The notes beneath the pieces are model-generated. The model was not told where the DNA came from. It ran no database searches and was given only the letters and a program-made list of their open reading frames with translations. This document shows positions 3,571 through 27,506 of a DNA stretch of 64,000 nt, piece by piece; within the stretch, counting starts at the first letter, position 1, and the number at the start of each line of letters is the position of its first letter. The position numbers and the translations under genes are program-made. The stretch is from Nitrospirales bacterium (GTDB lineage: Bacteria > Nitrospirota > Nitrospiria > Nitrospirales > UBA8639). Location of the stretch: assembly GCA_965223295.1 (NCBI GenBank), contig CBDCWC010000002.1, positions 544,001-608,000 on the forward strand, read 5' to 3'.

Positions 3571-4713
3571 ATGAAGAATCATGGTATGAATCGAGCAACC
3601 AGTGACGGCATGATGCGGAAAATAAGTCATCTGGGCTTGTTCACTATGATGGCAGGAATGCTCGTTCTGGGGGCTGCGATGGTAGGCCAGGCTGCTTTAT
3701 TGACGAAAGAGGATTTTAATTTTTATGGGTATGTGGAAGCCTCCTACACGCATAATTTCAAAAATCCAAATTCACAGACGAATAATCTGCGTATCTTTGA
3801 TGTGGATGCCAATTCATTTCGGCCGCATCTGGCGCAATTGGTATTTGAAAAAGAAGCAAAGTCAGATGGTGAATTGATCGACCGTGCAGGTTTTCGCACG
3901 AAACTTAATTTTGGTAGAGATGCCCAACTGACTGGAGGTTCAGGGTCGGATGATGTGGATTTTCAGGAAGCTTATATTCAGTACATAGCCACGATCGGTA
4001 ATGGCTTGGATCTACGTATTGGCCGGATGAATACGTTAATTGGCTATGAAGTGATTGAAAGCCCATTGAATCCAAACTTTTCTCGGTCCTGGCTTTTCGG
4101 CCTGGGTGAACCTTTTACCACAACAGGCATTCGAGCTTCCTATCAGTTTACCGACATGGTCGCACTTTCCGTTGGTTTGGTGAATGCGTGGAATGGCGCC
4201 ACTTCAGATTTTAACCGTAGCAAATCGGTTGAAGCCCTACTCGGTCTGACGCCGATGGACTGGCTGAGTGTATCGCTCTTTGGGTTCTGGGGCCCAGAAG
4301 GCGCCGTGGGGGCAAAGAACTCTGATCTTGGTCAAGCAGGTGGGATTATCACAGCCCAGGTTTCAACGCAAACTTCTCTCGTTCTTGAAGGCTACTGGGC
4401 TGAACAGGAAAATGGAGTGGCGGGGAGAGATGCGCAATGGCATGGGATAGCGGGGTACGTGATCCATGATTTTGACGATCAATGGGGGATGCGGCTTCGT
4501 ACGGAATGGTTTAAGGATGCTGATGGGTTTCTCACTGGAAGGGATCAAAAACTTTGGGAGGGAACCATCACCGCTCAATATAAACCTGTTCCCTATTTAA
4601 TTACACGTTTAGAATTTCGTTATGACAAATCAAATCGCAAGTCTTTTCAATATGGAGCGCGTCGGGTCGATCATCAAGAAACGCTCGCCACTGAAGTGAT
4701 TTTTCTTTTTTAA
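3571..4713 (+). CDS. Outer-membrane beta-barrel porin (BBP2/DUF3138-like), nitrogen-locus associated
   Basis: Signal peptide; FYGYVEASY, QEAYI, IGYEVIESPLNPNFSRS and RLEFRYD motifs; C-terminal Phe. Exact start uncertain. Confidence 0.8.
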   Translation: MKNHGMNRATSDGMMRKISHLGLFTMMAGMLVLGAAMVGQAALLTKEDFNFYGYVEASYTHNFKNPNSQTNNLRIFDVDANSFRPHLAQLVFEKEAKSDGELIDRAGFRTKLNFGRDAQLTGGSGSDDVDFQEAYIQYIATIGNGLDLRIGRMNTLIGYEVIESPLNPNFSRSWLFGLGEPFTTTGIRASYQFTDMVALSVGLVNAWNGATSDFNRSKSVEALLGLTPMDWLSVSLFGFWGPEGAVGAKNSDLGQAGGIITAQVSTQTSLVLEGYWAEQENGVAGRDAQWHGIAGYVIHDFDDQWGMRLRTEWFKDADGFLTGRDQKLWEGTITAQYKPVPYLITRLEFRYDKSNRKSFQYGARRVDHQETLATEVIFLF

Positions 4714-4817: not shown

Positions 4818-5225
<408 letters not shown>

Positions 5226-5279
5226 TGAGTATTATTTTTTCTATCTAATCGTCATATGTGATTGTTTGAAGGAGACAGT

Positions 5280-6584
5280 ATGAAGGTATCTCGCGTATTT
5301 CTACAGATAGGGTTGTTCCTAATATTAGTCCTGAGTATAGGGGAATCCTCTCTGGTGTTTGCAGAGGGAGTCGGATTAAAAATTGATACGGGTGATACGG
5401 CCTGGATTTTAATGTCTTCTGCATTGGTCTTATGCATGATGCTCCCTGGATTGGCGTTATTTTATGGAGGATTAGTTCGGAGTAAAAATGTGTTGGGAAC
5501 TATCATGCATACGGCAGTGATCTTATGTTTGATTACGCTAGTTTGGGTGATTTGTGGATATAGTCTCGCGTTTGGTCCTGATATCGGCGGCGTGATTGGA
5601 AGCTTAGCTTGGGTAGGGTTGCAAGGCGTTGGTATGGATCCCAGCCCAGATTATGCTTCAACGGTTCCTCATCAAGTATTCATGGTGTTTCAGCTCATGT
5701 TTGCAGCGATTACCGTTGCTCTTATGACAGGGAGCTTTGCTGAGCGCATGAATTTTAAAGCATTACTTATATTTTCAGTTGCATGGTCCGTGTTTATTTA
5801 TTCGCCATTAGCGCACTGGGTATGGGGTGGAGGTTGGTTACAACAAATGGGGGCTTTAGATTTTGCGGGAGGGGCGGTTGTACACATTAGTTCTGGGTTC
5901 GGTGCTTTGGTTGGTGCCCTGATGGTTGGTCCTCGCAAAGGATTTGGAAAAGAGCCGATGCCACCACATAATTTACCTATGACTGTATTGGGAACTGGTT
6001 TATTGTGGTTTGGATGGTTTGGATTTAATGGGGGGAGCGCCTTAGGTGCCAATGGCGGAGCCGGAGTGGCCTTTATTGCCACGCATATCGCAGCAGCGGC
6101 TGGTGGGTTAAGTTGGATGGCGGCTGAATGGGTGCATCGAGGCAAACCTACTGTTCTGGGAATCGCCAGTGGGATTATTGCTGGGTTGGCCACCATTACT
6201 CCAGGAGCCGGATTCGTCGGGCCCATGGCAGCGATCATCATTGGTCTTGTTGCTGGGACGATGTGTTATGTCGCGGTTGTCTGGAAAATGAAGTTAGGCT
6301 ATGACGACTCGTTGGACGTCGTGGGCATTCATGGGGTCGGCGGTCTAATAGGTATTCTGGCAACAGGGCTCTTTGCATCTGTAGGGGCAACAGGTCTGTT
6401 TTTTGGGAATGCGGACTTGTTCGGTATACAAGTCTTTCTGGCTTTGGTAACCTTAGCGTTTTCAGTTGTGGGTACCTATCTTATTCTCAAAATTGTTGAT
6501 CTGACAATTGGTCTTCGCATATCCCCGCAAGACGAAGAAATGGGCTTGGATTTGAGTCAACATAGCGAACGAGCCTATTCTTAA
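5280..6584 (+). CDS. amtB: Ammonium transporter
   Basis: GDTAWIL, PGLALFYGG, DFAGGAVVH, LWFGWFGFN and DDSLDVVGIHG (twin His); GAAGGAG RBS. Confidence 0.96.
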   Translation: MKVSRVFLQIGLFLILVLSIGESSLVFAEGVGLKIDTGDTAWILMSSALVLCMMLPGLALFYGGLVRSKNVLGTIMHTAVILCLITLVWVICGYSLAFGPDIGGVIGSLAWVGLQGVGMDPSPDYASTVPHQVFMVFQLMFAAITVALMTGSFAERMNFKALLIFSVAWSVFIYSPLAHWVWGGGWLQQMGALDFAGGAVVHISSGFGALVGALMVGPRKGFGKEPMPPHNLPMTVLGTGLLWFGWFGFNGGSALGANGGAGVAFIATHIAAAAGGLSWMAAEWVHRGKPTVLGIASGIIAGLATITPGAGFVGPMAAIIIGLVAGTMCYVAVVWKMKLGYDDSLDVVGIHGVGGLIGILATGLFASVGATGLFFGNADLFGIQVFLALVTLAFSVVGTYLILKIVDLTIGLRISPQDEEMGLDLSQHSERAYS

Positions 6585-6672: not shown

Positions 6673-8082
6673 ATGACCCCGAAAGAAGTATTGGATTTTG
6701 CCAAAAAGAACAAGGTAGAAATGGTTGACCTGAAATTTATTGATTTGGTTGGAACATGGCAGCATTTTTCAATACCAACCTCAGAATTATCCTTGGACTT
6801 ATTTAAAGAAGGGTCCGGTTTTGATGGTTCATCAATTCGTGGATGGAAGGCGATTCAAAACAGCGACATGTTGATGGTGCCGGATCCAAATACCGCTCGT
6901 TTGGATCCCTTTACGGAGATTCCCACGCTCAGTATGGTTGGAAATGTTCAAGATCCCATCACCCGTACGATTTATGAACGCGATCCCCGCGGCGTGGCTA
7001 TGCGAGCCGAGCAATATCTTAAGAGCACCAAGATTGGTGATACTTCCTACTGGGGGCCTGAAGCTGAATTTTTTATTTTTGACCATGTGAGTTTTGAACA
7101 AAATAGCCATTCCGGTTATTACTTTGTGGATTCGGAAGAAGGTATTTGGAATTCAGGAAAGGATGGAGAAAATTTGGGGTCTCGACCTCGGCACAAGGAA
7201 GGGTATTTTCCTGTTTCCCCCGTGGATTCCCAGCAAGATATTCGTTCAGAAATGTGCCGAGAAATGGAAAAGGCGGGTATTCGAGTTGAAAAACATCATC
7301 ATGAAGTGGCCACGGCGGGTCAAGGGGAAATTGATCTCCGCTTCGATACGCTCCTCAAAATGGCGGATCAGATGATGATGTATAAATACATTGTCCGCAA
7401 TGTGGCTCGTCGTCATGGGAAAACAGCCACGTTTATGCCGAAACCCGTTTTCGGAGACAATGGCACAGGCATGCATACTCACCAAAGCATTTGGAAAGGA
7501 GGTAAGCCAAATTTTGCTGGAAAAGATTATGCCGGTGTGTCACAACAATGCTTGTATTACATTGGTGGGATTCTCAAGCATGGTCCAGCCTTAGCCGCGT
7601 TAACGAATCCAACAACAAATTCCTATAAACGGTTAGTGCCAGGGTTTGAAGCTCCCGTGATGCTGGCCTATTCCAGCCGTAACCGTTCAGCGGGGATTCG
7701 AATTCCGATGTACTCCCCAAGCCCCAAAGCCAAGCGGATCGAAGTGCGATTCCCCGATCCTTCTTGTAATATGTATTTGGCGTTTAGCGCGATGTTAATG
7801 GCAGGGTTGGATGGCATTCAAAATAAAATTCATCCGGGTGAAGCCATGGATAAGAATCTTTACGATTTAGAGCCTGAAGAATTAGGCAATATTCAAACCT
7901 TGCCGTCGAATTTAGAAGATGCTTTAGATAACCTTGCCAATGACTATGAATTTCTCTTGAAGGGTGGAGTCTTCAGTGAAGATTTAGTTGAGGCGTGGAT
8001 TACCTATAAACGAGACAATGAAGTGGATCCCATGCGTCTCCGTCCGCATCCCCATGAATTCTTCATGTATTACGACGTGTAA
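6673..8082 (+). CDS. glnA: Glutamine synthetase type I
   Basis: [42 protein letters not shown]; adenylylation motif DKNLYDL. Confidence 0.98.
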
Positions 8083-8087
8083 ATTAC

Positions 8088-8172
8088 AGTAAAGAGTGAG
8101 GAGTAAGGGGGTTAGGAGAAATTCTGAGTTCCTTTCTCCTCCTCTGCTTCCTTTCTCCTCTTTATTTCTCAC
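8088..8172. repeat. Purine-rich/pyrimidine-rich imperfect hairpin built from ~7-nt units between convergent glnA and glnE half
   Basis: GTGAGGA GTAAGGG GGTTAGG... followed by TTTCTCCTCC...TTTCTCACT; may act as a terminator. Confidence 0.45.
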
Positions 8173-10424
8173 TGTTGACTTGAGAATCGCCAAAGAAACC
8201 GTTCATGAATCTGCTTCATTCGTGAATGCGTCGTTTTTTCAAACGCTTCCGCACTTTTTTGCCAGTCTCTTGACGTCATGCCCAAACGGCGAGCCAAGAA
8301 TACCATTTCATCAGATCCCGAAGGAGGCAGCACTAAGTCTTTGGCATGTCCCCGCACAATTCGCAAGCCATCAATGAGTTGCCGAAGAAAGATATAGTCA
8401 TCATGTAACGTTTCTCTCTCTGATAATGTGAGAATGGATTCGTGACAAAGTTGTTCAATGGCTTCTAGTGTATTGGGTGTTCGAATTGAAGGATGAGCAT
8501 GGCCATGTATCAGTTGGAGATATTGAACGGTATACTCCACATCGATGAGCCCGCCAGGGCTGTACTTGACATTCGTCGCACCAGGTTGAACTAATTCGGT
8601 TATTTGGCGTTGACGCAGATTGAGCGCAAGACCTAAATCCCACGGGTCTGGCCCATACACGAACTGATTTCTATGGGTTTCAACAGCTTTTCCGACGCGA
8701 GAGTTTCCAGCAATGAAACGAAGCTTGATGAAGGCTTGCCGTTCAAATGGGGCGGCCCCTCCCTGACTGCGATAATACTGTTGAATTTCTTCTACGGTGT
8801 TGGCCAATGTGCCTTTGTCACCATTCGGACGAAGCCGGGTATCGATATGAAAAATACCTTCCTGTTTGGCTTCGATCCATTGCAGAAATTCTTGTGCCCA
8901 TCGTTCAAAAGTATCGGCGGACATTCGAACAATGTTCCGTTTCTCAGTGCGTTGAGGATTGGCGTAGACAAATAAAATTTCAATATCTGACGCATACCCC
9001 AGTTCGCCTCCACCTAATTTCCCTAACCCAAAGATCGCCATGGGAATCGAAGAGGTCCGTGAGGCTTTAGGCTGAATCACTCGATATGATTGTTCGAGTG
9101 CATGATTCAGGATGACATCAGCCAAATTTGTTAAGGCCTGGGAAAAATCGTGAAGAGAACTATTTTCTAAAAGGTGCCGCATATCGATACGAAAAAGTTC
9201 TTCATCTTTCACTTGATTTAAACGCTGCTTTCTTTGCGCAATGGTTTTTGCCGGCAGCAAAGCTTTTTCGAGACTTTTGCTTAAAGTCGTTTTTGAGCGA
9301 ACCAACGATCCTTTTTGATACCGCTGCATCATAGGCAATAGGTTGTCATGCTGACGGCGTAGTAAGTCTTCCCACAGATAGTCGCTGCTTCCAAACAGTT
9401 GAGCCAGGTTTCCCATAGTGGATCCTTTACTCAAAATGGCAAGGGTAGCCCCCTTTTTCGGTTGCTCTAATAATTGATCGAGAAATTGATCAAAATGATC
9501 CAGAGCTTTTCCGGGGTCAGGAGCCCAACTTAAATAATGCGTGAATTCTTTTAATAAGACGGCAGCCGTTCGTAGTTCTTGTTGTTCCTGTTTACGTAAA
9601 ATTCTTCTTCCATGGCGGTCGTGAATGTAGAGACGATTCAAGACTTGTGTGCCTTTGACTTCAATTTTTGCTTTCACCAAGTAAATGCCTCGCATGGCCA
9701 AGGCATTTGCAAATGTATATAAAAAGGCAGGCGTATCAGTTGAGCGAATATCCAAAATAGTATTCGGAGAAGATGCACTGTTCGAAAAGGTAAGATGAAC
9801 GGGATGGAGTAAATCAACGGTTTTTCTTTTTCCTTTTTCCATATGTTCAATGAGTCGGCGGTTAACAGAACGACGAGCCTGGCGTACCTGATTCTTCTGT
9901 AACAAGAGGAGAAGAGAGACCAACATCTGTTGGAAGTCTTGTTGAACAGATCTCTCAAATGGAGAATCTTTTTTCGCTTGGACTTCAAAGACGTCGACTG
10001 CGATTTTCCGAGATAATCGTCCTGATGACCGTCGTACAGGGAGGGATTTCCAGGCCTGCAAGGTTTTTGATCTGTGAATGGGTACAGGTGGTGCGGCAGA
10101 GGTTGGAGTAGAGGTAAAAATGGCTGCCTCTCGTATGTCCAGCCCAAACGAGGCAAGTATGCCGCAGAGAGTGGCAAACTCAGAAAAATAATCGTAGGCG
10201 ACGATGTGAATATGATAGCGCCGCGATGGAAGTGTGTTGATGGTCAACGCACAAGTTTGTTCGAACGTGAGTTGATGGACCATGTTTGCATGTTGGCTTA
10301 TGACCTCAGAAGAAAATTGCTCTAAATAATCTTGGTCCATTTGCGTGATATAGTCTTGGAGAAAAGAGGAGGGTAAATGAGGAGACAGTTGTTCGAGGCG
10401 TTCAATGAGGACAGAGGAATTCAT
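8169..10424 (-). CDS. glnE: GlnE half-protein: two GlnD-like ACT domains plus adenylyltransferase (AT)-type nucleotidyltransferase domain
   Basis: ACT-like IVAYDYFSEFATLCGILASFGLDIREAAIFT and LDIRSTDTPAFLYTFANAL; NT motif GKLGGGELGYASDIE; IDTRLRP, FERQAF and KYSPGGLIDVEY. Confidence 0.85.
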   Translation of the reverse strand: MNSSVLIERLEQLSPHLPSSFLQDYITQMDQDYLEQFSSEVISQHANMVHQLTFEQTCALTINTLPSRRYHIHIVAYDYFSEFATLCGILASFGLDIREAAIFTSTPTSAAPPVPIHRSKTLQAWKSLPVRRSSGRLSRKIAVDVFEVQAKKDSPFERSVQQDFQQMLVSLLLLLQKNQVRQARRSVNRRLIEHMEKGKRKTVDLLHPVHLTFSNSASSPNTILDIRSTDTPAFLYTFANALAMRGIYLVKAKIEVKGTQVLNRLYIHDRHGRRILRKQEQQELRTAAVLLKEFTHYLSWAPDPGKALDHFDQFLDQLLEQPKKGATLAILSKGSTMGNLAQLFGSSDYLWEDLLRRQHDNLLPMMQRYQKGSLVRSKTTLSKSLEKALLPAKTIAQRKQRLNQVKDEELFRIDMRHLLENSSLHDFSQALTNLADVILNHALEQSYRVIQPKASRTSSIPMAIFGLGKLGGGELGYASDIEILFVYANPQRTEKRNIVRMSADTFERWAQEFLQWIEAKQEGIFHIDTRLRPNGDKGTLANTVEEIQQYYRSQGGAAPFERQAFIKLRFIAGNSRVGKAVETHRNQFVYGPDPWDLGLALNLRQRQITELVQPGATNVKYSPGGLIDVEYTVQYLQLIHGHAHPSIRTPNTLEAIEQLCHESILTLSERETLHDDYIFLRQLIDGLRIVRGHAKDLVLPPSGSDEMVFLARRLGMTSRDWQKSAEAFEKTTHSRMKQIHERFLWRFSSQQ

Positions 10425-10431
10425 GATGCGA

Positions 10432-10482
10432 AGTATACTGAAAAAAATTGTCGTTGTAAGGTCTAAAAGAGTCTCGTATAAT
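10432..10482. promoter_or_regulatory. Overlapping divergent sigma70-like promoters for the two glnE halves
   Basis: Plus strand: TTGTAA (10454)-17-TATAAT (10477). Minus strand: CTTACA-17-TATACT (10432-10437), 7 nt before ATG 10424. Confidence 0.55.
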
Positions 10483-10493
10483 CTGCTTTCTTC

Positions 10494-12137
10494 ATGAAAT
10501 CCTCATCGACTCGGCACATCTCAAAACACACCAGTAAAAAGGTAAAAACGCAGGTCATTTTTCCTGATCCAACTCCAATCCTCCTGGCCTCTGATCTTGC
10601 TCCACAAAAGGTCGCACAGTTGCTACAAGCTTTCGGGATTCAGGATTGGAAACGGGCCGATTTGAATCTTCAAGCGATGGCCGGCGAACCGAATACACGC
10701 AAGATCTTAGCAGATTTTCTTCCTTCTCTTTTGGCGACCGTGGCGAAGACCGCTGACCCTGATCAAGCTTTGAATGAATGGGAACGGTATGTGGATTCTG
10801 GCATTCACCGCCTCCAATTGTTTCAGTATTTGATAGCGGTCCCTCATCTTGTTGAGGTGTTAGGGACGGTGTTTGGCAACAGTCAAGCGATGGCACAGAC
10901 GCTCATCCGAGATCCACTCTTAGTGTATTGGATTGAAGATGACCGAGTCTTAGTCCGACGGCAAACACGATCAAATTTGTCAGGGTCGATACAAACGGTA
11001 CTGGCAGGAGTGAAGAGCTTTGAGGGTAAATGCGAAGCCTTGAGACGATTCAAACGACGGGCAATGCTTCGCCTTGGCATTCGTGATCTGCTTGGTATTG
11101 CTACTCCCATTGAAACGTATACAGCACTATCGGATGTAGCCGCAGGGGTGATTCAGGCCGCGTATGAACTTGTGGAGCAAGAGCTCCAGCGGCAGCATGG
11201 GGACTGGGGGGAGCAAACCCCTATGAAAAGGAAAAAACGAATAGGTTTTTCTGTGCTGGCCATGGGAAAACTTGGTGGGTGGGAATTAAATTATAGTTCA
11301 GATGTTGATCTGATTTATGTCTATCAGGCTCCAGAAAGCAATACGAACGCAGGAATAGGGCAGCGGTCTCTCTTAGGTTCAGATTATTTTCATGCTGTAG
11401 CCAGAGAACTGACGAATGTGTTGTCTGCTTCAACGGCCGAGGGAGCTTTGTTTCGAGTAGATATGCGTTTGCGTCCGGAAGGGCAGGTCGGGGCATTAGC
11501 CTGTTCGGTAGAAGATGCCTGTCATTATTATCAAACACGGGGGCGAACTTGGGAACGTTTAGCATTCTTAAAGGCCAAGCCTATTGCAGGGGATATTCGA
11601 ATAGGGCAATCACTCATCCGAAAATTGGGAAAATTTGTGTATGGAGGCCCTGACACCGCTCCTCAGGTCTTCTCAGAGATTCGTGTTCTTCGTTCTCAAA
11701 TGGTGTCCAAAATGACTCGTAAAGGAGAGCTGCAACGCAATGTAAAGTTAGGCACGGGCGGTATTCGGGAAATTGAGTTTATCGTGCAAAGTCTTCAGTT
11801 GCGGTGGGGCTATCGGTATAGCAGTATTCGTGACAGGCAAACGCTCAAAAGTTTATTGAAGTTGGTGAAGGTTGGAAAACTGAAAACGGAGGTCTTTCAG
11901 CAATTGAAGGAGTCTTATATATTTTTGCGAAATCTTGAGACAAAAATTCAAATGGTTCACGAGATTCAAACGCACTTGTTACCTGCGAAAATTGAAGAGA
12001 TCGCTAAATGTGCCATTCGAGTGGGCTACCCCAAAGAAGATAACGTCAAACAGACCGCTGAGCATTTACTGATAGATTACCGTGGGCATACCCTAAGAGT
12101 TCACCAGCTTTACCGACAAATTGTCAAAGCGTCTTAG
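10494..12137 (+). CDS. glnE: GlnE half-protein: adenylyl-removing (AR)-type nucleotidyltransferase domain
   Basis: AMGKLGGWELNYSSDVDLIY, FRVDMRLRPEG, GRTWERLAFLKAKP and NVKLGTGGIREIEF; only one NT domain. Confidence 0.85.
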   Translation: MKSSSTRHISKHTSKKVKTQVIFPDPTPILLASDLAPQKVAQLLQAFGIQDWKRADLNLQAMAGEPNTRKILADFLPSLLATVAKTADPDQALNEWERYVDSGIHRLQLFQYLIAVPHLVEVLGTVFGNSQAMAQTLIRDPLLVYWIEDDRVLVRRQTRSNLSGSIQTVLAGVKSFEGKCEALRRFKRRAMLRLGIRDLLGIATPIETYTALSDVAAGVIQAAYELVEQELQRQHGDWGEQTPMKRKKRIGFSVLAMGKLGGWELNYSSDVDLIYVYQAPESNTNAGIGQRSLLGSDYFHAVARELTNVLSASTAEGALFRVDMRLRPEGQVGALACSVEDACHYYQTRGRTWERLAFLKAKPIAGDIRIGQSLIRKLGKFVYGGPDTAPQVFSEIRVLRSQMVSKMTRKGELQRNVKLGTGGIREIEFIVQSLQLRWGYRYSSIRDRQTLKSLLKLVKVGKLKTEVFQQLKESYIFLRNLETKIQMVHEIQTHLLPAKIEEIAKCAIRVGYPKEDNVKQTAEHLLIDYRGHTLRVHQLYRQIVKAS

Positions 12138-24072: not shown

Positions 24073-26511
24073 TTAGAGTATTTGACTCAGGACTCTGGAG
24101 AGATCCAAGAGGTTATAGGGTTTGGCAATGACGCCGGAAAATCCAAACTCTTGAAAACGTGACATCACAGGGTCATTGGAATAGCCACTTGAGACAATCA
24201 CAGCAGCGTTGGGGTCTAACGCCTTAATTTTTCGAAGAGTTTCTTGGCCACCCATTCCACCTGGAATGGTCAAGTCTAAAATGGTGGCGACATAAGAAGC
24301 ATTACTTTCTAACGCCTGTGCATAGTAGCTCACAGCGGTTTTGCCATCATGGGCCAGATCGATGTCAAAGCCAAGATGTTCAAGCATTTTTCCCAACACA
24401 TCTTGGATTTCTTCTTCATCATCCATAATGAGAATTCGCCCCTTCCCCTGGATCAACACGTCAGAGGATTCGGGAGGCGGAGCCTCTTGAAGAGAGGAAG
24501 CTGGAAGATAGAGCGTAAAACAGGCTCCTTTTCCCAGTGCTGAAGAGACAGCAAGGTGTCCCTCATGCCGTTTAATAATCGAATAAGTGGTGGCTAAGCC
24601 CAGCCCGCTGCCTTTTTGTTTGGTCGTAAAATAAGGATCAAAAATCTTAGAGAGATGATCTTCTGGAATGCCGATGCCTTGGTCGGTCACTGACACGCAA
24701 ACATAGTTCCCTGGTTTCAAGGGAAGGTCAGCAGGGGAAGGTATAGAACAATTTTCAGCTTCGACTGTAATTGCACCGCCCTCGGGCATAGCCTGATCGC
24801 CATTGATCACAAGATTTTGTATAACTTGGCTAATCTGGCCTTCGTCGACTTCAACTGGCCAAAGATGCTCCGGAATAGACAGGTGACAACGAACTCTCGA
24901 GCCTCGTAACGCAAATTCCACTGTATCGGTGATAATCGAGGCAATCGAGGTCGTACTCTTCACCGGAGCTCCACCTTTGGCAAATGTTAAGAGTTGTTTG
25001 GTCAGATCGCGAGCTCGCAAACAGGCTTTTTCAGCAGCGGTCAGTCGTTCAACAACAGATTCCTTACTTGAGGAAGCTCCTTTCCCAGTAATCATTTTGG
25101 CTAACCCAATGTTGGCAAAGACCGAGGTTAAGATATTATTGAAATCATGTGCGATACCTCCGGCCAGTAACCCCACAGATTCCAATTTTGTAGCGCGTAG
25201 GCGCTCTTCCTCCAATCGTTTTTGCTCCGTGATGTCACGTGTCACAATGACACCAATGATGGTACCGACACTTGTTCGAAATGGATGAATATGGCTTTCG
25301 AACCATCGCCATTCAGCTTGTTTGGTTTGAATACGGCAGATCATGTCAATTTCTTCAAGCGAATGTATTTGCCGATGAAATGACTTCAAGAGCTCTTGCC
25401 GTTCCTCTGGATGGACGAAATCAAAAAAACTTTTCCCTAACATGTCTGTGGAATCATATCCCAGGACTGCCCGACAGTTGGGACTCACATAATTGCAGTG
25501 ACTGTGATTGTTAATTTCAACAATTAAGTCATAAGCATTTTCCATGATGGCTCGATACCGTTGCTCACTGTCGCGCAAAGCGTCTTCGGTCTTTTTCCGT
25601 TGAAGTTCGCTCGCGGCTCTGGCAGCAAACAATTGGATGATGGATGTTGCCACGTGAGTTTGTGCGATTGGTTCGGGACTGAGTACTAACAGTAAGCCAA
25701 TGACTTGTCCTGCCTGTCCCCGCAACGCGCTACCTAAATAACTTGTGACTGGCCATGCCGAGAGGAGAGATGTTGGAGGAAAGAGCGGCGTGGAAAGAAT
25801 ATTGCCTGTGCAACCTTTGATGTGTATCAGATCTTCAAAGACCAATGGGGGTGGGGTCCATGCGATGTTTTCCGCAAAAGATCCATTTGCCCAAATAGCG
25901 ATCGTTTGTGTGTTGGGATGGGGAACGTGTTCAAGCTCAGCAAGAATCGCATAGGGGGCATTCAGAGCCTGACATAAATCTTTGACTAATGATCGTAAAA
26001 AGGCAATGCTGCCTGGCGCCGGATCGTTCTGCGCAATTTTGCGCAAAGCTTCTTCGAATCGCTTGGAATCAGTAATATCTTTGACGACCGAAATCGCACC
26101 CCATTGCGTCCCTTGAGTATCAAACAGTGGATAACACGATACGAGAAAATAGCCGGACAGAGACGGAAAAGAGGTTTCAACAACAGCTGAAAGCGCGCCC
26201 GCTAATACCGTGTCCCATGGAGGAGGATGTTGTGGATTGATGTTCCCATAATAGGGCAAGCGGTAGTGTTGGCCAACAATGGGGCCGATGTCGGGCTCAA
26301 CCTGATCACGCAGAGCTCGGTTCGCCCAAACAATGTTCCCAGAATGATCCAAGATCATGACATGATCGGTGAGTGCATCAAACGCTTGCTCCCACTTCTC
26401 GGTCATATGGGATTGAGGTAATTCAGTCATGTGTGACATTATCTTGTCCATACGGTGAGAAATGGATGCCGTGGTCTTGTGAAAGGGTCCGTGACGAATA
26501 GTTCTTACCAA
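24073..26511 (-). CDS. Hybrid sensor histidine kinase (PAS-GAF-PAS-HisKA-HATPase-REC)
   Basis: LAGGIAHDFNNILT, DPYFTTK..GSGLGL, C-terminal receiver. True start may be ATG 26451 or later. Confidence 0.92.
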   Translation of the reverse strand: MVRTIRHGPFHKTTASISHRMDKIMSHMTELPQSHMTEKWEQAFDALTDHVMILDHSGNIVWANRALRDQVEPDIGPIVGQHYRLPYYGNINPQHPPPWDTVLAGALSAVVETSFPSLSGYFLVSCYPLFDTQGTQWGAISVVKDITDSKRFEEALRKIAQNDPAPGSIAFLRSLVKDLCQALNAPYAILAELEHVPHPNTQTIAIWANGSFAENIAWTPPPLVFEDLIHIKGCTGNILSTPLFPPTSLLSAWPVTSYLGSALRGQAGQVIGLLLVLSPEPIAQTHVATSIIQLFAARAASELQRKKTEDALRDSEQRYRAIMENAYDLIVEINNHSHCNYVSPNCRAVLGYDSTDMLGKSFFDFVHPEERQELLKSFHRQIHSLEEIDMICRIQTKQAEWRWFESHIHPFRTSVGTIIGVIVTRDITEQKRLEEERLRATKLESVGLLAGGIAHDFNNILTSVFANIGLAKMITGKGASSSKESVVERLTAAEKACLRARDLTKQLLTFAKGGAPVKSTTSIASIITDTVEFALRGSRVRCHLSIPEHLWPVEVDEGQISQVIQNLVINGDQAMPEGGAITVEAENCSIPSPADLPLKPGNYVCVSVTDQGIGIPEDHLSKIFDPYFTTKQKGSGLGLATTYSIIKRHEGHLAVSSALGKGACFTLYLPASSLQEAPPPESSDVLIQGKGRILIMDDEEEIQDVLGKMLEHLGFDIDLAHDGKTAVSYYAQALESNASYVATILDLTIPGGMGGQETLRKIKALDPNAAVIVSSGYSNDPVMSRFQEFGFSGVIAKPYNLLDLSRVLSQIL

Positions 26512-27506
26512 ACAACTGTGGCAAACAGGTTAGCTAGTTCTGGGTCGAGGCTTTTTCCAGCTTCTTGTCGAATGGTCTCTCGTGCTTCAGGTACCGGCAT
26601 GGTTTGGTGAGTACTTTGCCCTGTGCAGTAATTGTCAAAGACATTGGCTAATCCTACTATCCGAGCCGGAAAGGGGATTTTGTCTCCAGCCAGGCCATCG
26701 GGGAAGCCCGATCCATCGAACTTTTCATGATGAGAACGAATAATCTGTTCAACAGCGGGATGAAAGGGAATGTTACTGATGAACTGCGCTCCAATCGTCG
26801 GATGACATTTCATGAGTTCCTGTTCCTGTTCCGAAATGGATGTATGTCCGGCAATTAATCGATCATGGATGCCAACCTTGCCAATATCGTGCAAATAGGC
26901 ACCAAGGTGAATGGCTTCCCGTTCATCTTGATTTAGTTGAAGATGTTCCGTGAGTAAGGATGAATAAAAGTTGACTCGGCTGGCATGTTGGACCAGCTCA
27001 GGATGTTTGGCGCCTAATAGGGTATCAATATTGGTCATGGCGGTTTTGACATCAATGCCTGAAGTCCAGAGGTTTCCCAGGGCTTGGAGAGCGCCCTGGA
27101 GTGAGGAGAGGCGTGTTCGACGCTCTAAAGCTTTTTTGATAATTTCTAGCAGGTCGGAGACATTGAACGGCTTCAGAACATAGGCCGCGACCCCAAGTCG
27201 TATCGCGTCAATGGCTGATTGTAATGTGCCATACCCTGTAATGATCACGACATCAACATCGTGTCCATTTTCGCGGATTTTGGCAAGAAGGTCGGTGCCT
27301 GGTTGATCCGGGAGCTTTAAATCAAGGGTGACCAGATCGATGGGGTGAGTGGCAAGGATTTGCAACGCAACTTCGGCCCGGTCGACCGTATACAGATTGA
27401 AATACGGTGAAAGAATAAGTTTTAACGCTTCTCGTGGGCCATGCTCATCTTCAACGATGAGAATGTTCGATTGAGGGAGAGAAGATCCGGTAGGCTCTCG
27501 ATTCAT
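26505..27506 (-). CDS. Response regulator with REC and HD-GYP-type domains
   Basis: ILIVEDE, LDLKLP and KPF receiver motifs; LHDIGK and HHEKFDGSGFP. Confidence 0.9.
   Translation of the reverse strand: MNREPTGSSLPQSNILIVEDEHGPREALKLILSPYFNLYTVDRAEVALQILATHPIDLVTLDLKLPDQPGTDLLAKIRENGHDVDVVIITGYGTLQSAIDAIRLGVAAYVLKPFNVSDLLEIIKKALERRTRLSSLQGALQALGNLWTSGIDVKTAMTNIDTLLGAKHPELVQHASRVNFYSSLLTEHLQLNQDEREAIHLGAYLHDIGKVGIHDRLIAGHTSISEQEQELMKCHPTIGAQFISNIPFHPAVEQIIRSHHEKFDGSGFPDGLAGDKIPFPARIVGLANVFDNYCTGQSTHQTMPVPEARETIRQEAGKSLDPELANLFATVVW

Follow-up and report, generated by a model that had tools for sequence, protein, structure and literature searches.

The enzyme GlnE, which in its canonical form adenylylates and de-adenylylates glutamine synthetase (GS) with one polypeptide, is encoded as two proteins by divergent genes in the genome of a Nitrospirales bacterium. 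The genes lie in a 64,000-nucleotide stretch of contig CBDCWC010000002.1 (positions 544,001 to 608,000; hereafter the window, in whose own numbering all positions are given). A 751-amino-acid (aa) protein and a 547-aa protein each hold a single GlnE-type nucleotidyltransferase (NT) module, and the 751-aa protein carries ahead of its module a region that profile matches and a structural model identify as a tandem ACT pair of the kind found in GlnD. This two-gene GlnE, both in its split and in its ACT-bearing module, is a solid feature of the whole lineage. The explanation that we favour in full, and towards which we lean clearly, is that the pair forms a GS-modifying system made of an ACT-gated adenylyltransferase (AT) half, the 751-aa protein, and an adenylyl-removing (AR) half, the 547-aa protein.

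Two genes for one enzyme

The start codons of the two genes are only 69 bp apart. Each product has one PF03710 and one PF08335 domain (scores in Table 1); the original prediction, made from the letters of the window alone, had proposed one GlnE-type NT domain for each of two divergent open reading frames (ORFs) beside glnA. The pol-beta-type carboxylate triad (D-x-D or D-x-E plus a third D) is intact in both proteins. In the 751-aa protein it consists of D480 and E482 (8979-8987) with D528 (8841-8843), minus strand, invariant in 27/27 and 22/22 aligned homologues; in the 547-aa protein it consists of D270 and D272 (11301-11309) with D323 (11460-11462), plus strand, invariant in 22/22.

The host genome is complete (3.78 Mb in three contigs), and a whole-genome profile scan with PF03710 found these two genes alone above the cut-off, with no two-module GlnE gene. 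The prediction that GlnE is here divided into separately encoded single-module proteins is supported. A scan of the genome with TIGR01693 found a full-length GlnD on another contig (718 bits), which answers the question raised with the prediction of whether glnD is present.

Compared with canonical GlnE (E. coli glnE, b3053, 946 aa; structures 1v4a for AR and 3k7d for AT), the window proteins share the PF03710 plus PF08335 modules and the catalytic carboxylates, and the genome supplies the same context of a type I GS with its Tyr397 loop, PII and GlnD. They differ in being two chains, and the module at the AT position has D-x-E rather than D-x-D, sits on a long separate branch and is preceded by the GlnD-type ACT pair. 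Neither protein reaches the cut-off of any GlnE equivalog model: the 751-aa protein scores 153-197 bits against PRK11072, PRK14108 and PRK14109 (best 197.2, cut-off 625), and the best score of the 547-aa protein is 396.9 against a cut-off of 724.

Conservation of the divided arrangement

A possible objection is that the division is an artefact, namely a misassembled inversion, a frameshift or a pseudogene. We surveyed the best 80 of 564 confirmed stretches, all 80 from Nitrospirales, and found a 547-type gene directly upstream of and divergent from the 751-type gene in 78. At one of the two other loci (L083) the contig ends 261 bp upstream of the 751-type gene. The other does count against a universal pairing: 2.8 kb upstream of the 751-type gene (L068:1-2851) hold no 547-type gene and instead contain SLT-domain, DUF1501 and DUF1800 ORFs, which could reflect a rearrangement or a chimeric contig of a metagenome-assembled genome. 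Linkage to glnA is looser, which also counts against the explanation favoured here; glnA lies within 6 kb downstream in 29/80 loci, including 14/14 of the closest, and is not adjacent in 51/80. At the level of genomes, 29 of 41 relatives have a full-length 751-type match. In 27 of the 29, the adjoining gene on that contig is a divergent one of the 547 type, and in the remaining two the locus is cut by contig ends.

Both frames are open, with 43-85% identity across the order, and the junction between the genes (10424/10494) is bridged without any joint by Logan contigs, short-read assemblies from four runs of one study (strain ~98-99% identical). Because the pair is conserved across loci and genomes and its junction is bridged by other assemblies, it is not a misassembly; we found nothing in favour of an artefactual origin and give it practically no chance. 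The argument made at the outset from the divergent orientation, against a frameshift or nonsense artefact, is upheld by these data, and the misassembled inversion named as a risk is likewise dismissed.

How far the design extends was gauged from a draw of 201 genomes of the phylum. A full-length ACT-bearing protein occurs in 51 of the 53 genomes from the class to which the window belongs. In 110 genomes of other classes the match covers only residues ~290-745 and lies inside open frames of ~1040-1080 aa; six of these frames, fetched and parsed, are two-module GlnEs lacking an ACT region. No match at E 1e-20 or better was found in 40 of the 201 genomes, including all those of two families (f15 and f20). 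The source names of the closest homologues are Nitrospirota, Nitrospirales and Nitrospira.

A GlnD-type tandem ACT region

In the GlnD model TIGR01693, which is 850 positions long, positions 617-843 align with residues 19-286 of the 751-aa protein (E 5e-24), and positions 781-918 of a second GlnD profile, NF003467, fall on the same region (E 1.6e-26); the stretch is thus colinear with the C-terminal tandem ACT domains of GlnD. Against the GlnD encoded in the same genome, residues 207-283 align with ACT2 at 27% identity (E 3e-8), and residues 83-104 align weakly with ACT1.

Modelled with AlphaFold2 from an alignment of 19 rows, residues 1-295 (pLDDT 83.7, pTM 0.81) form four helices and then two beta-alpha-beta-beta-alpha units; the loop at 110-135 is disordered. 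Fold comparison by VIA-align against 48,161 chains returned the tandem ACT of Synechocystis aspartate kinase (3l76_B; Z 11.8, rmsd 3.2, 147 residues), the regulatory domain of E. coli threonine dehydratase (9d2s_A; Z 9.3), plant ACT-like domains (Z 7.2, rmsd 1.8), CASTOR2 (Z 6.9) and the stand-alone ACT protein 1zpv (Z 5.2). For the first unit (model range 52-173) the match to the ACT-like domains 9c7o/9c7n spans 79 residues at Z 7.2 and rmsd 1.8. The top Foldseek match is the ACT-like N-terminal region of L-GDH180 from M. smegmatis (E 1e-5).

One result speaks against an ACT assignment: in the profile scan that had been proposed as a check, the GlnE and GlnD_UR_UTase domains pass their cut-offs but the ACT units of the window protein do not, with PF24931 at 17.8 against 27 bits and no match to PF01842. 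Homologues of the same clade do pass (P0126, PF01842 at 38.6 bits; P0144, PF24931 at 33.6 bits). On the profile matches and the model together, the N-terminal region is best described as a GlnD-type tandem ACT pair, in agreement with the two ACT-like segments first noticed in the sequence. Here the glycine usual in the ACT ligand loop is Ala or absent (STDTPAFLY, AYDYFSEF).

The 751-aa protein is otherwise unlike GlnD. The ACT pair is C-terminal in GlnD, whereas here it is N-terminal to the catalytic module, and GlnD has an HD domain and its own N-terminal nucleotidyltransferase; a Pfam scan of the 751-aa protein found no HD domain, and Pfam and NCBIfam scans of it found no GlnD-type N-terminal nucleotidyltransferase.

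Fused relatives

A HMMER pass over 1.84 billion representatives gave 9076 matches at E <=0.001, and the best 150 were parsed with custom module and ACT profiles. Most are fused proteins, with the order ACT-ACT-NT-NT in 70 and NT-ACT-ACT-NT in 43, to which two probable N-truncated members of the latter can be added; 30 are ACT-ACT-NT alone, like the 751-aa protein, and five are fragments or ACT-less. The fused AR-ACT-ACT-AT form that had been asked about at the outset therefore exists, together with a second order, ACT-ACT-AT-AR, and in both the ACT pair always stands directly before the D-x-E module. Source names assign the NT-ACT-NT forms to Anaerolineae, a split form to Abditibacteriales, and the ACT-NT-NT forms to Deltaproteobacteria, Desulfobacterales and Thermodesulfobacteriota, with delta proteobacterium NaphS2 among the sources. 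The taxa of Atlas clusters point further to Planctomycetota and Chloroflexota, which we treat only as leads.

All 28 sampled fused proteins combine one AR-type module (N with DxD) and one ACT-linked module (G with DxE). These ACT-GlnEs of ~1200-1300 aa (for example P0124 from Anaerolineae and P0497 from Desulfobacterales / delta proteobacterium NaphS2) resemble the window pair in the ACT-ACT region before a D-x-E module and in the presence of one AR-type module, and differ in having all parts in one chain. They are automatically annotated as 'glutamate-ammonia-ligase adenylyltransferase' or 'ACT domain-containing protein', and we found no characterisation of any of them.

Two shorter proteins, P0257 (949 aa) and P0269 (956 aa), have a first module of the ACT-linked D-x-E type and a second that clusters with the AR modules at the end of ACT-NT-NT proteins. 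An ACT region was undetectable in either, and from their sequences they may be either ACT-less derivatives or N-terminally truncated gene calls.

A full-text literature search, with subscription journals and supplements outside its scope, turned up no account of a GlnE that is split or carries ACT domains. Passages of one paper (PMC6131200) list 'GlnEB (NITMOv2_1289, NITMOv2_1290)' and no more, and a passage of another (PMC9239080) says that Great Lakes Nitrospira lack glnE. We regard the split, ACT-bearing design as an uncharacterised variant of the known GlnE system, known so far only from automatic annotation.

Which protein probably removes AMP and which adds it

We extracted 112 modules and built trees, one with FastTree and an IQ-TREE posterior mean site frequency (PMSF) tree of 46 modules. 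Both unrooted trees contain a split with support of 96-99. On one side are the 547-type proteins, the canonical N-terminal modules with E. coli AR among them, and the modules that accompany the ACT-linked ones in fused forms; on the other are the canonical C-terminal modules, including E. coli AT, and all ACT-linked modules. The ACT-linked modules form a clade (support 100) with a long stem of 0.9-1.1 changes per site, and the 751-aa module is nested inside it. The clade that contains the N-terminal AR domain of E. coli also takes in the 547-aa module, with support of 96 in the 46-module tree and 93 in two further trees. On this phylogenetic footing the 547-aa protein is very probably of the AR type, and the label given to it in the original prediction stands.

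The 751-aa protein is probably the AT, to judge by module comparisons of several kinds. In the fused proteins the ACT-linked module stands where AT stands in canonical GlnE, since each of the 28 has a single module of either type. A PMSF tree (mixture-model data set of 49 rows) with the N-terminal regions of five GlnDs as outgroup places the root on the AR side and joins ACT-linked with canonical C-terminal modules, support 82. The best NCBIfam stretches of the 751-aa module fall on the AT half in two of the three GlnE equivalog models. In 14/18 of the genome pairs listed, the 751-aa module is matched better by the C-terminal than by the N-terminal module of an ACT-less Nitrospirota GlnE.

Several results pull the other way. 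Unrooted trees of three clades cannot tell which two clades are sisters; an LG+G4 rooted tree of 27 rows leaves the base unresolved; and on the same rows and model an approximately unbiased (AU) test does not reject the alternative that joins ACT-linked to AR-type modules (p 0.076). The 751-aa module scores higher against E. coli AR (1v4a, 98.7 bits) than against AT (3k7d, 78.6 bits), and Foldseek ranks them likewise (E 9e-17 and 5e-15). The actinobacterial model PRK14109 aligns the 751-aa module to its own N-terminal half, and in the other 4 of the 18 genome pairs listed the N-terminal module is the slightly better match. The AT label that had been put on this protein is accordingly retained at moderate strength, backed by the rooted PMSF tree but left unsettled by the LG+G4 tree and the AU test.

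These results bear on the possibility of reversed or redundant roles, with the ACT-linked module as AR or AR-derived and the 547-aa protein adenylylating GS or doing both. The better sequence and fold match of the 751-aa module to E. coli AR and the alternative not rejected by the AU test would fit this reading. The gap between 1v4a and 3k7d does not discriminate, because the 547-aa protein also scores higher against 1v4a. Moreover, it is the 547-aa and not the 751-aa module that lies inside the AR-type clade with its invariant N and DxD, and the rooted mixture-model tree puts the ACT-linked clade with the canonical C-terminal domains. We consider a reversal very improbable.

Both short motifs on which the two labels had first been based are present, the 547-aa protein having GGWELNYSSDVDLIY and the 751-aa protein GGGELGYASDIEILF, but the reasoning drawn from them fails. 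The combination N, DxD and D is found in 50/50 AR-type modules and G, DxE and D in 44/44 ACT-linked modules, while the 16/16 rows labelled canonical C-terminal have N, G or S with DxD (two of these rows, from the ~950-aa proteins P0257 and P0269, group with terminal AR-type modules of ACT-NT-NT proteins). ELN versus ELG and DxD versus DxE were therefore rejected as markers of AR and AT: ELN, though it never varies among AR-type modules, also occurs in 9/16 canonical C-terminal modules, and DxE, absent there, marks only the ACT-linked clade.

A different reading takes the 751-aa protein to be GlnD-like, nucleotidylylating PII or another protein and leaving the 547-aa protein alone to act on GS. 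Three observations lend it something: the label '[protein-PII] uridylyltransferase family protein' that NCBI gives to one homologue, the homology of the N-terminal 290 residues to the GlnD C-terminus, and the stem that separates the D-x-E clade from both canonical GlnE clades. The catalytic module is nevertheless of the GlnE type by both PF03710 and the GlnE equivalogs, which are its best NCBIfam matches, whereas TIGR01693 reaches only 84.5 bits over the whole protein (cut-off 519.4), all from the ACT region. The genome already has a complete GlnD, and the 751-aa protein has no HD domain that we could find. The fused forms invariably combine the module with one of the AR type, the same partnership that AT has in canonical GlnE, and an AR enzyme lacking an AT enzyme would have nothing to remove. 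We judge a GlnD-like role improbable and keep to the assignment of the 751-aa protein as AT.

The two halves appear to have different histories. The 547-type proteins form a clade (support 95-98) with the N-terminal modules of ACT-less ~1050-aa GlnEs, including those of other Nitrospirota classes (L118-L123), and stand apart from the AR modules found alongside ACT-AT in fused chains. This fits a mosaic origin, in which the AR half of an ancestral ACT-less GlnE survived with a gene of its own and its AT half was replaced in function by an ACT-AT unit.

The shared intergenic region

Two back-to-back sigma-70-like promoters are predicted in the 69 bp between the genes. The plus-strand candidate has TTGTAA at 10454-10459 and TATAAT at 10477-10482, and the minus-strand candidate has CTTACA at 10460-10455 and TATACT at 10437-10432, each with a 17-nt spacer. 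Their -35 hexamers overlap, and each -10 ends 8-12 nt ahead of its start codon. Sigma-70 consensus sites are no commoner here than in shuffled sequence (4 against a mean of 6.0), so that conservation alone supports the two sites; an alignment of nine relatives shows little or no variation in either -10 box or in the shared TTGTAAG. One may speculate from this layout that the messages are near-leaderless, with predicted starts at about 10425-10430 (minus strand) and 10488-10493 (plus strand), and that the two predicted promoters compete.

Genomic neighbourhood

The gene order is PII gene, amtB and glnA on the plus strand, then the 751-aa ORF on the minus strand, convergent with glnA, and then the 547-aa ORF on the plus strand (Table 1). 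In an alignment to GS chains of the Protein Data Bank (PDB), Tyr397 of GlnA (7861-7863) falls opposite the Tyr in KNLYDLPPEE, the corresponding loop of GS 7w85. The Tyr of this loop is what we take to be the adenylylation site, as established for enterobacterial GS. The best PDB match, the non-adenylylated cyanobacterial GS of Synechocystis (3ng0), keeps the same Tyr, which weakens the case for GlnA as a substrate; the loop is for this reason permissive only and no proof of adenylylation.

Table 1. Features of the GlnE locus in the window
Feature	Position	Strand	Evidence or remarks
PII protein (GlnK/GlnB type)	4887..5225	+	PF00543 109.9 bits; 112 aa; Tyr at position 51
Ammonium transporter AmtB	5262..6584	+	PF00909 425 bits
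Type I glutamine synthetase GlnA, presumed substrate	6673..8082	+	TIGR00653 680.9 bits
751-aa ACT-ACT-nucleotidyltransferase protein (putative GS adenylyltransferase half)	8169..10424	-	Domain profiles, homologue alignments
GlnD_UR_UTase helical (HEPN-type) domain, residues 617-742 of 751-aa protein	8199..8576	-	PF08335 59.7 bits
GlnE nucleotidyltransferase domain, residues 339-582 of 751-aa protein	8679..9410	-	PF03710 139 bits (cut-off 24)
Second ACT-like unit, residues ~207-298 of 751-aa protein	9531..9806	-	27% identity to ACT2 of the GlnD of the same genome
First ACT-like unit, residues ~55-176 of 751-aa protein, with low-confidence loop 110-135	9897..10262	-	Matches 9c7o/9c7n
Four-helix N-terminal segment, residues 1-50 of 751-aa protein	10275..10424	-	Model helices 3-50, pLDDT ~87-96
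Shared intergenic region with two back-to-back sigma-70-like promoters (predicted)	10425..10493		Consensus scan, conservation
547-aa single-module GlnE protein, AR type	10494..12137	+	Profiles, trees
GlnE nucleotidyltransferase domain, residues 122-373 of 547-aa protein	10857..11612	+	PF03710 217 bits (cut-off 24)
GlnD_UR_UTase helical domain, residues 409-543 of 547-aa protein	11718..12122	+	PF08335 85.1 bits

The mechanically called PII ORF has its start, a TTG, at 4821; the match to the P-II profile starts with residue 23, the ATG at 4887, where the PII homologues also begin (MKLIQAII...). Its Tyr51 is presumably the uridylylation site, as in E. coli PII. Directly upstream of glnK-amtB-glnA, on the same strand, lies an OmpL-like beta-barrel porin (3571-4713; PF07642 BBP2, 223.6 bits), which may be an outer-membrane partner for ammonium uptake. 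Conservation within the locus is uneven: in one relative (L039, OZ245007.1, 8327-11513) GlnA and PII are 100% identical to those of the window, and the neighbouring 751-type, 547-type and AmtB proteins are 70%, 83% and 88% identical. Elsewhere in the window, 24073-27506 encodes an unrelated two-component pair, a hybrid PAS histidine kinase with a receiver domain and a response regulator with HD (HD_5).

Discussion

In canonical GlnE a single chain carries both of the opposing activities, under the coordination of PII, PII-UMP and glutamine, and how the signals are routed between its halves is debated. In the arrangement that we favour for the Nitrospirales, the 751-aa protein would probably AMPylate GS at Tyr397, and the 547-aa protein would quite probably remove the AMP by phosphorolysis, like the N-terminal domain of the E. 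coli enzyme. The ACT pair would gate the adjoining D-x-E module in cis through a small metabolite that reports nitrogen status. With separate genes and predicted overlapping back-to-back promoters, the ratio of AT to AR activity might, speculatively, be set by expression as well. Control of either half by PII is possible, PII and GlnD both being present in the genome.

The GlnD ACT domains are reportedly needed for the glutamine response of GlnD. By analogy with GlnD, glutamine is the leading candidate for the ligand of the ACT pair, if a tentative one. That an AT enzyme may sense glutamine directly, as had been suggested for this protein, is not new in itself, because an engineered ACT-less fragment already does so: residues 438-928 of H. 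seropedicae GlnE, an N-terminally truncated form studied as an AT enzyme on its own, according to passages of a preprint (bioRxiv 10.64898/2026.09.02.748916) AMPylate GS and respond directly to glutamine, cooperatively with MgATP, the sensing being placed in the central/AT part. The fragment resembles the 751-aa protein, whose own role is putative, in being a single AT-type polypeptide, and so serves as an engineered counterpart to a natural monofunctional AT; it differs in being engineered and in having no ACT domains.

If, as these passages indicate, the C-terminal part of GlnE can sense glutamine with no ACT domains, the ligand of the ACT pair may be a different one, and the pair may either add a sensing route or replace one. 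That the pair binds another metabolite, or serves only oligomerisation or docking, gains further from the many amino acids and other ligands that ACT domains are established to bind, from the closest structural matches, which are regulated by Asp-family amino acids, isoleucine and arginine, and from the altered ligand-loop glycine. The homology and colinearity with the GlnD C-terminus point back to glutamine, as does the constant position of the ACT pair beside the module presumed to react to nitrogen sufficiency, and we hold a sensor for something else, or a purely structural pair, to be somewhat unlikely.

The most far-reaching version of our proposal is that Nitrospiria run two separate opposing enzymes, with AT switched by a GlnD-type ACT glutamine sensor independently of PII, AR inherited from an ACT-less GlnE, and the overlapping promoters possibly mutually exclusive. 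In its entirety we think this unlikely; if it were true, it would provide a natural, dissectable AT/AR switch in which sensing has moved from the PII cascade into the enzyme.

Natural AR and AT enzymes that are separate, the latter with a recognisable sensor, would allow each activity and its effectors to be assayed alone. The hosts are Nitrospira-type nitrite oxidisers, which have a key part in the nitrogen cycle. Should the ACT pair sense glutamine, nitrogen status would be read in them by the modifying enzyme itself and not only through GlnD and PII. The fused relatives in several phyla show that the regulatory design is widespread.

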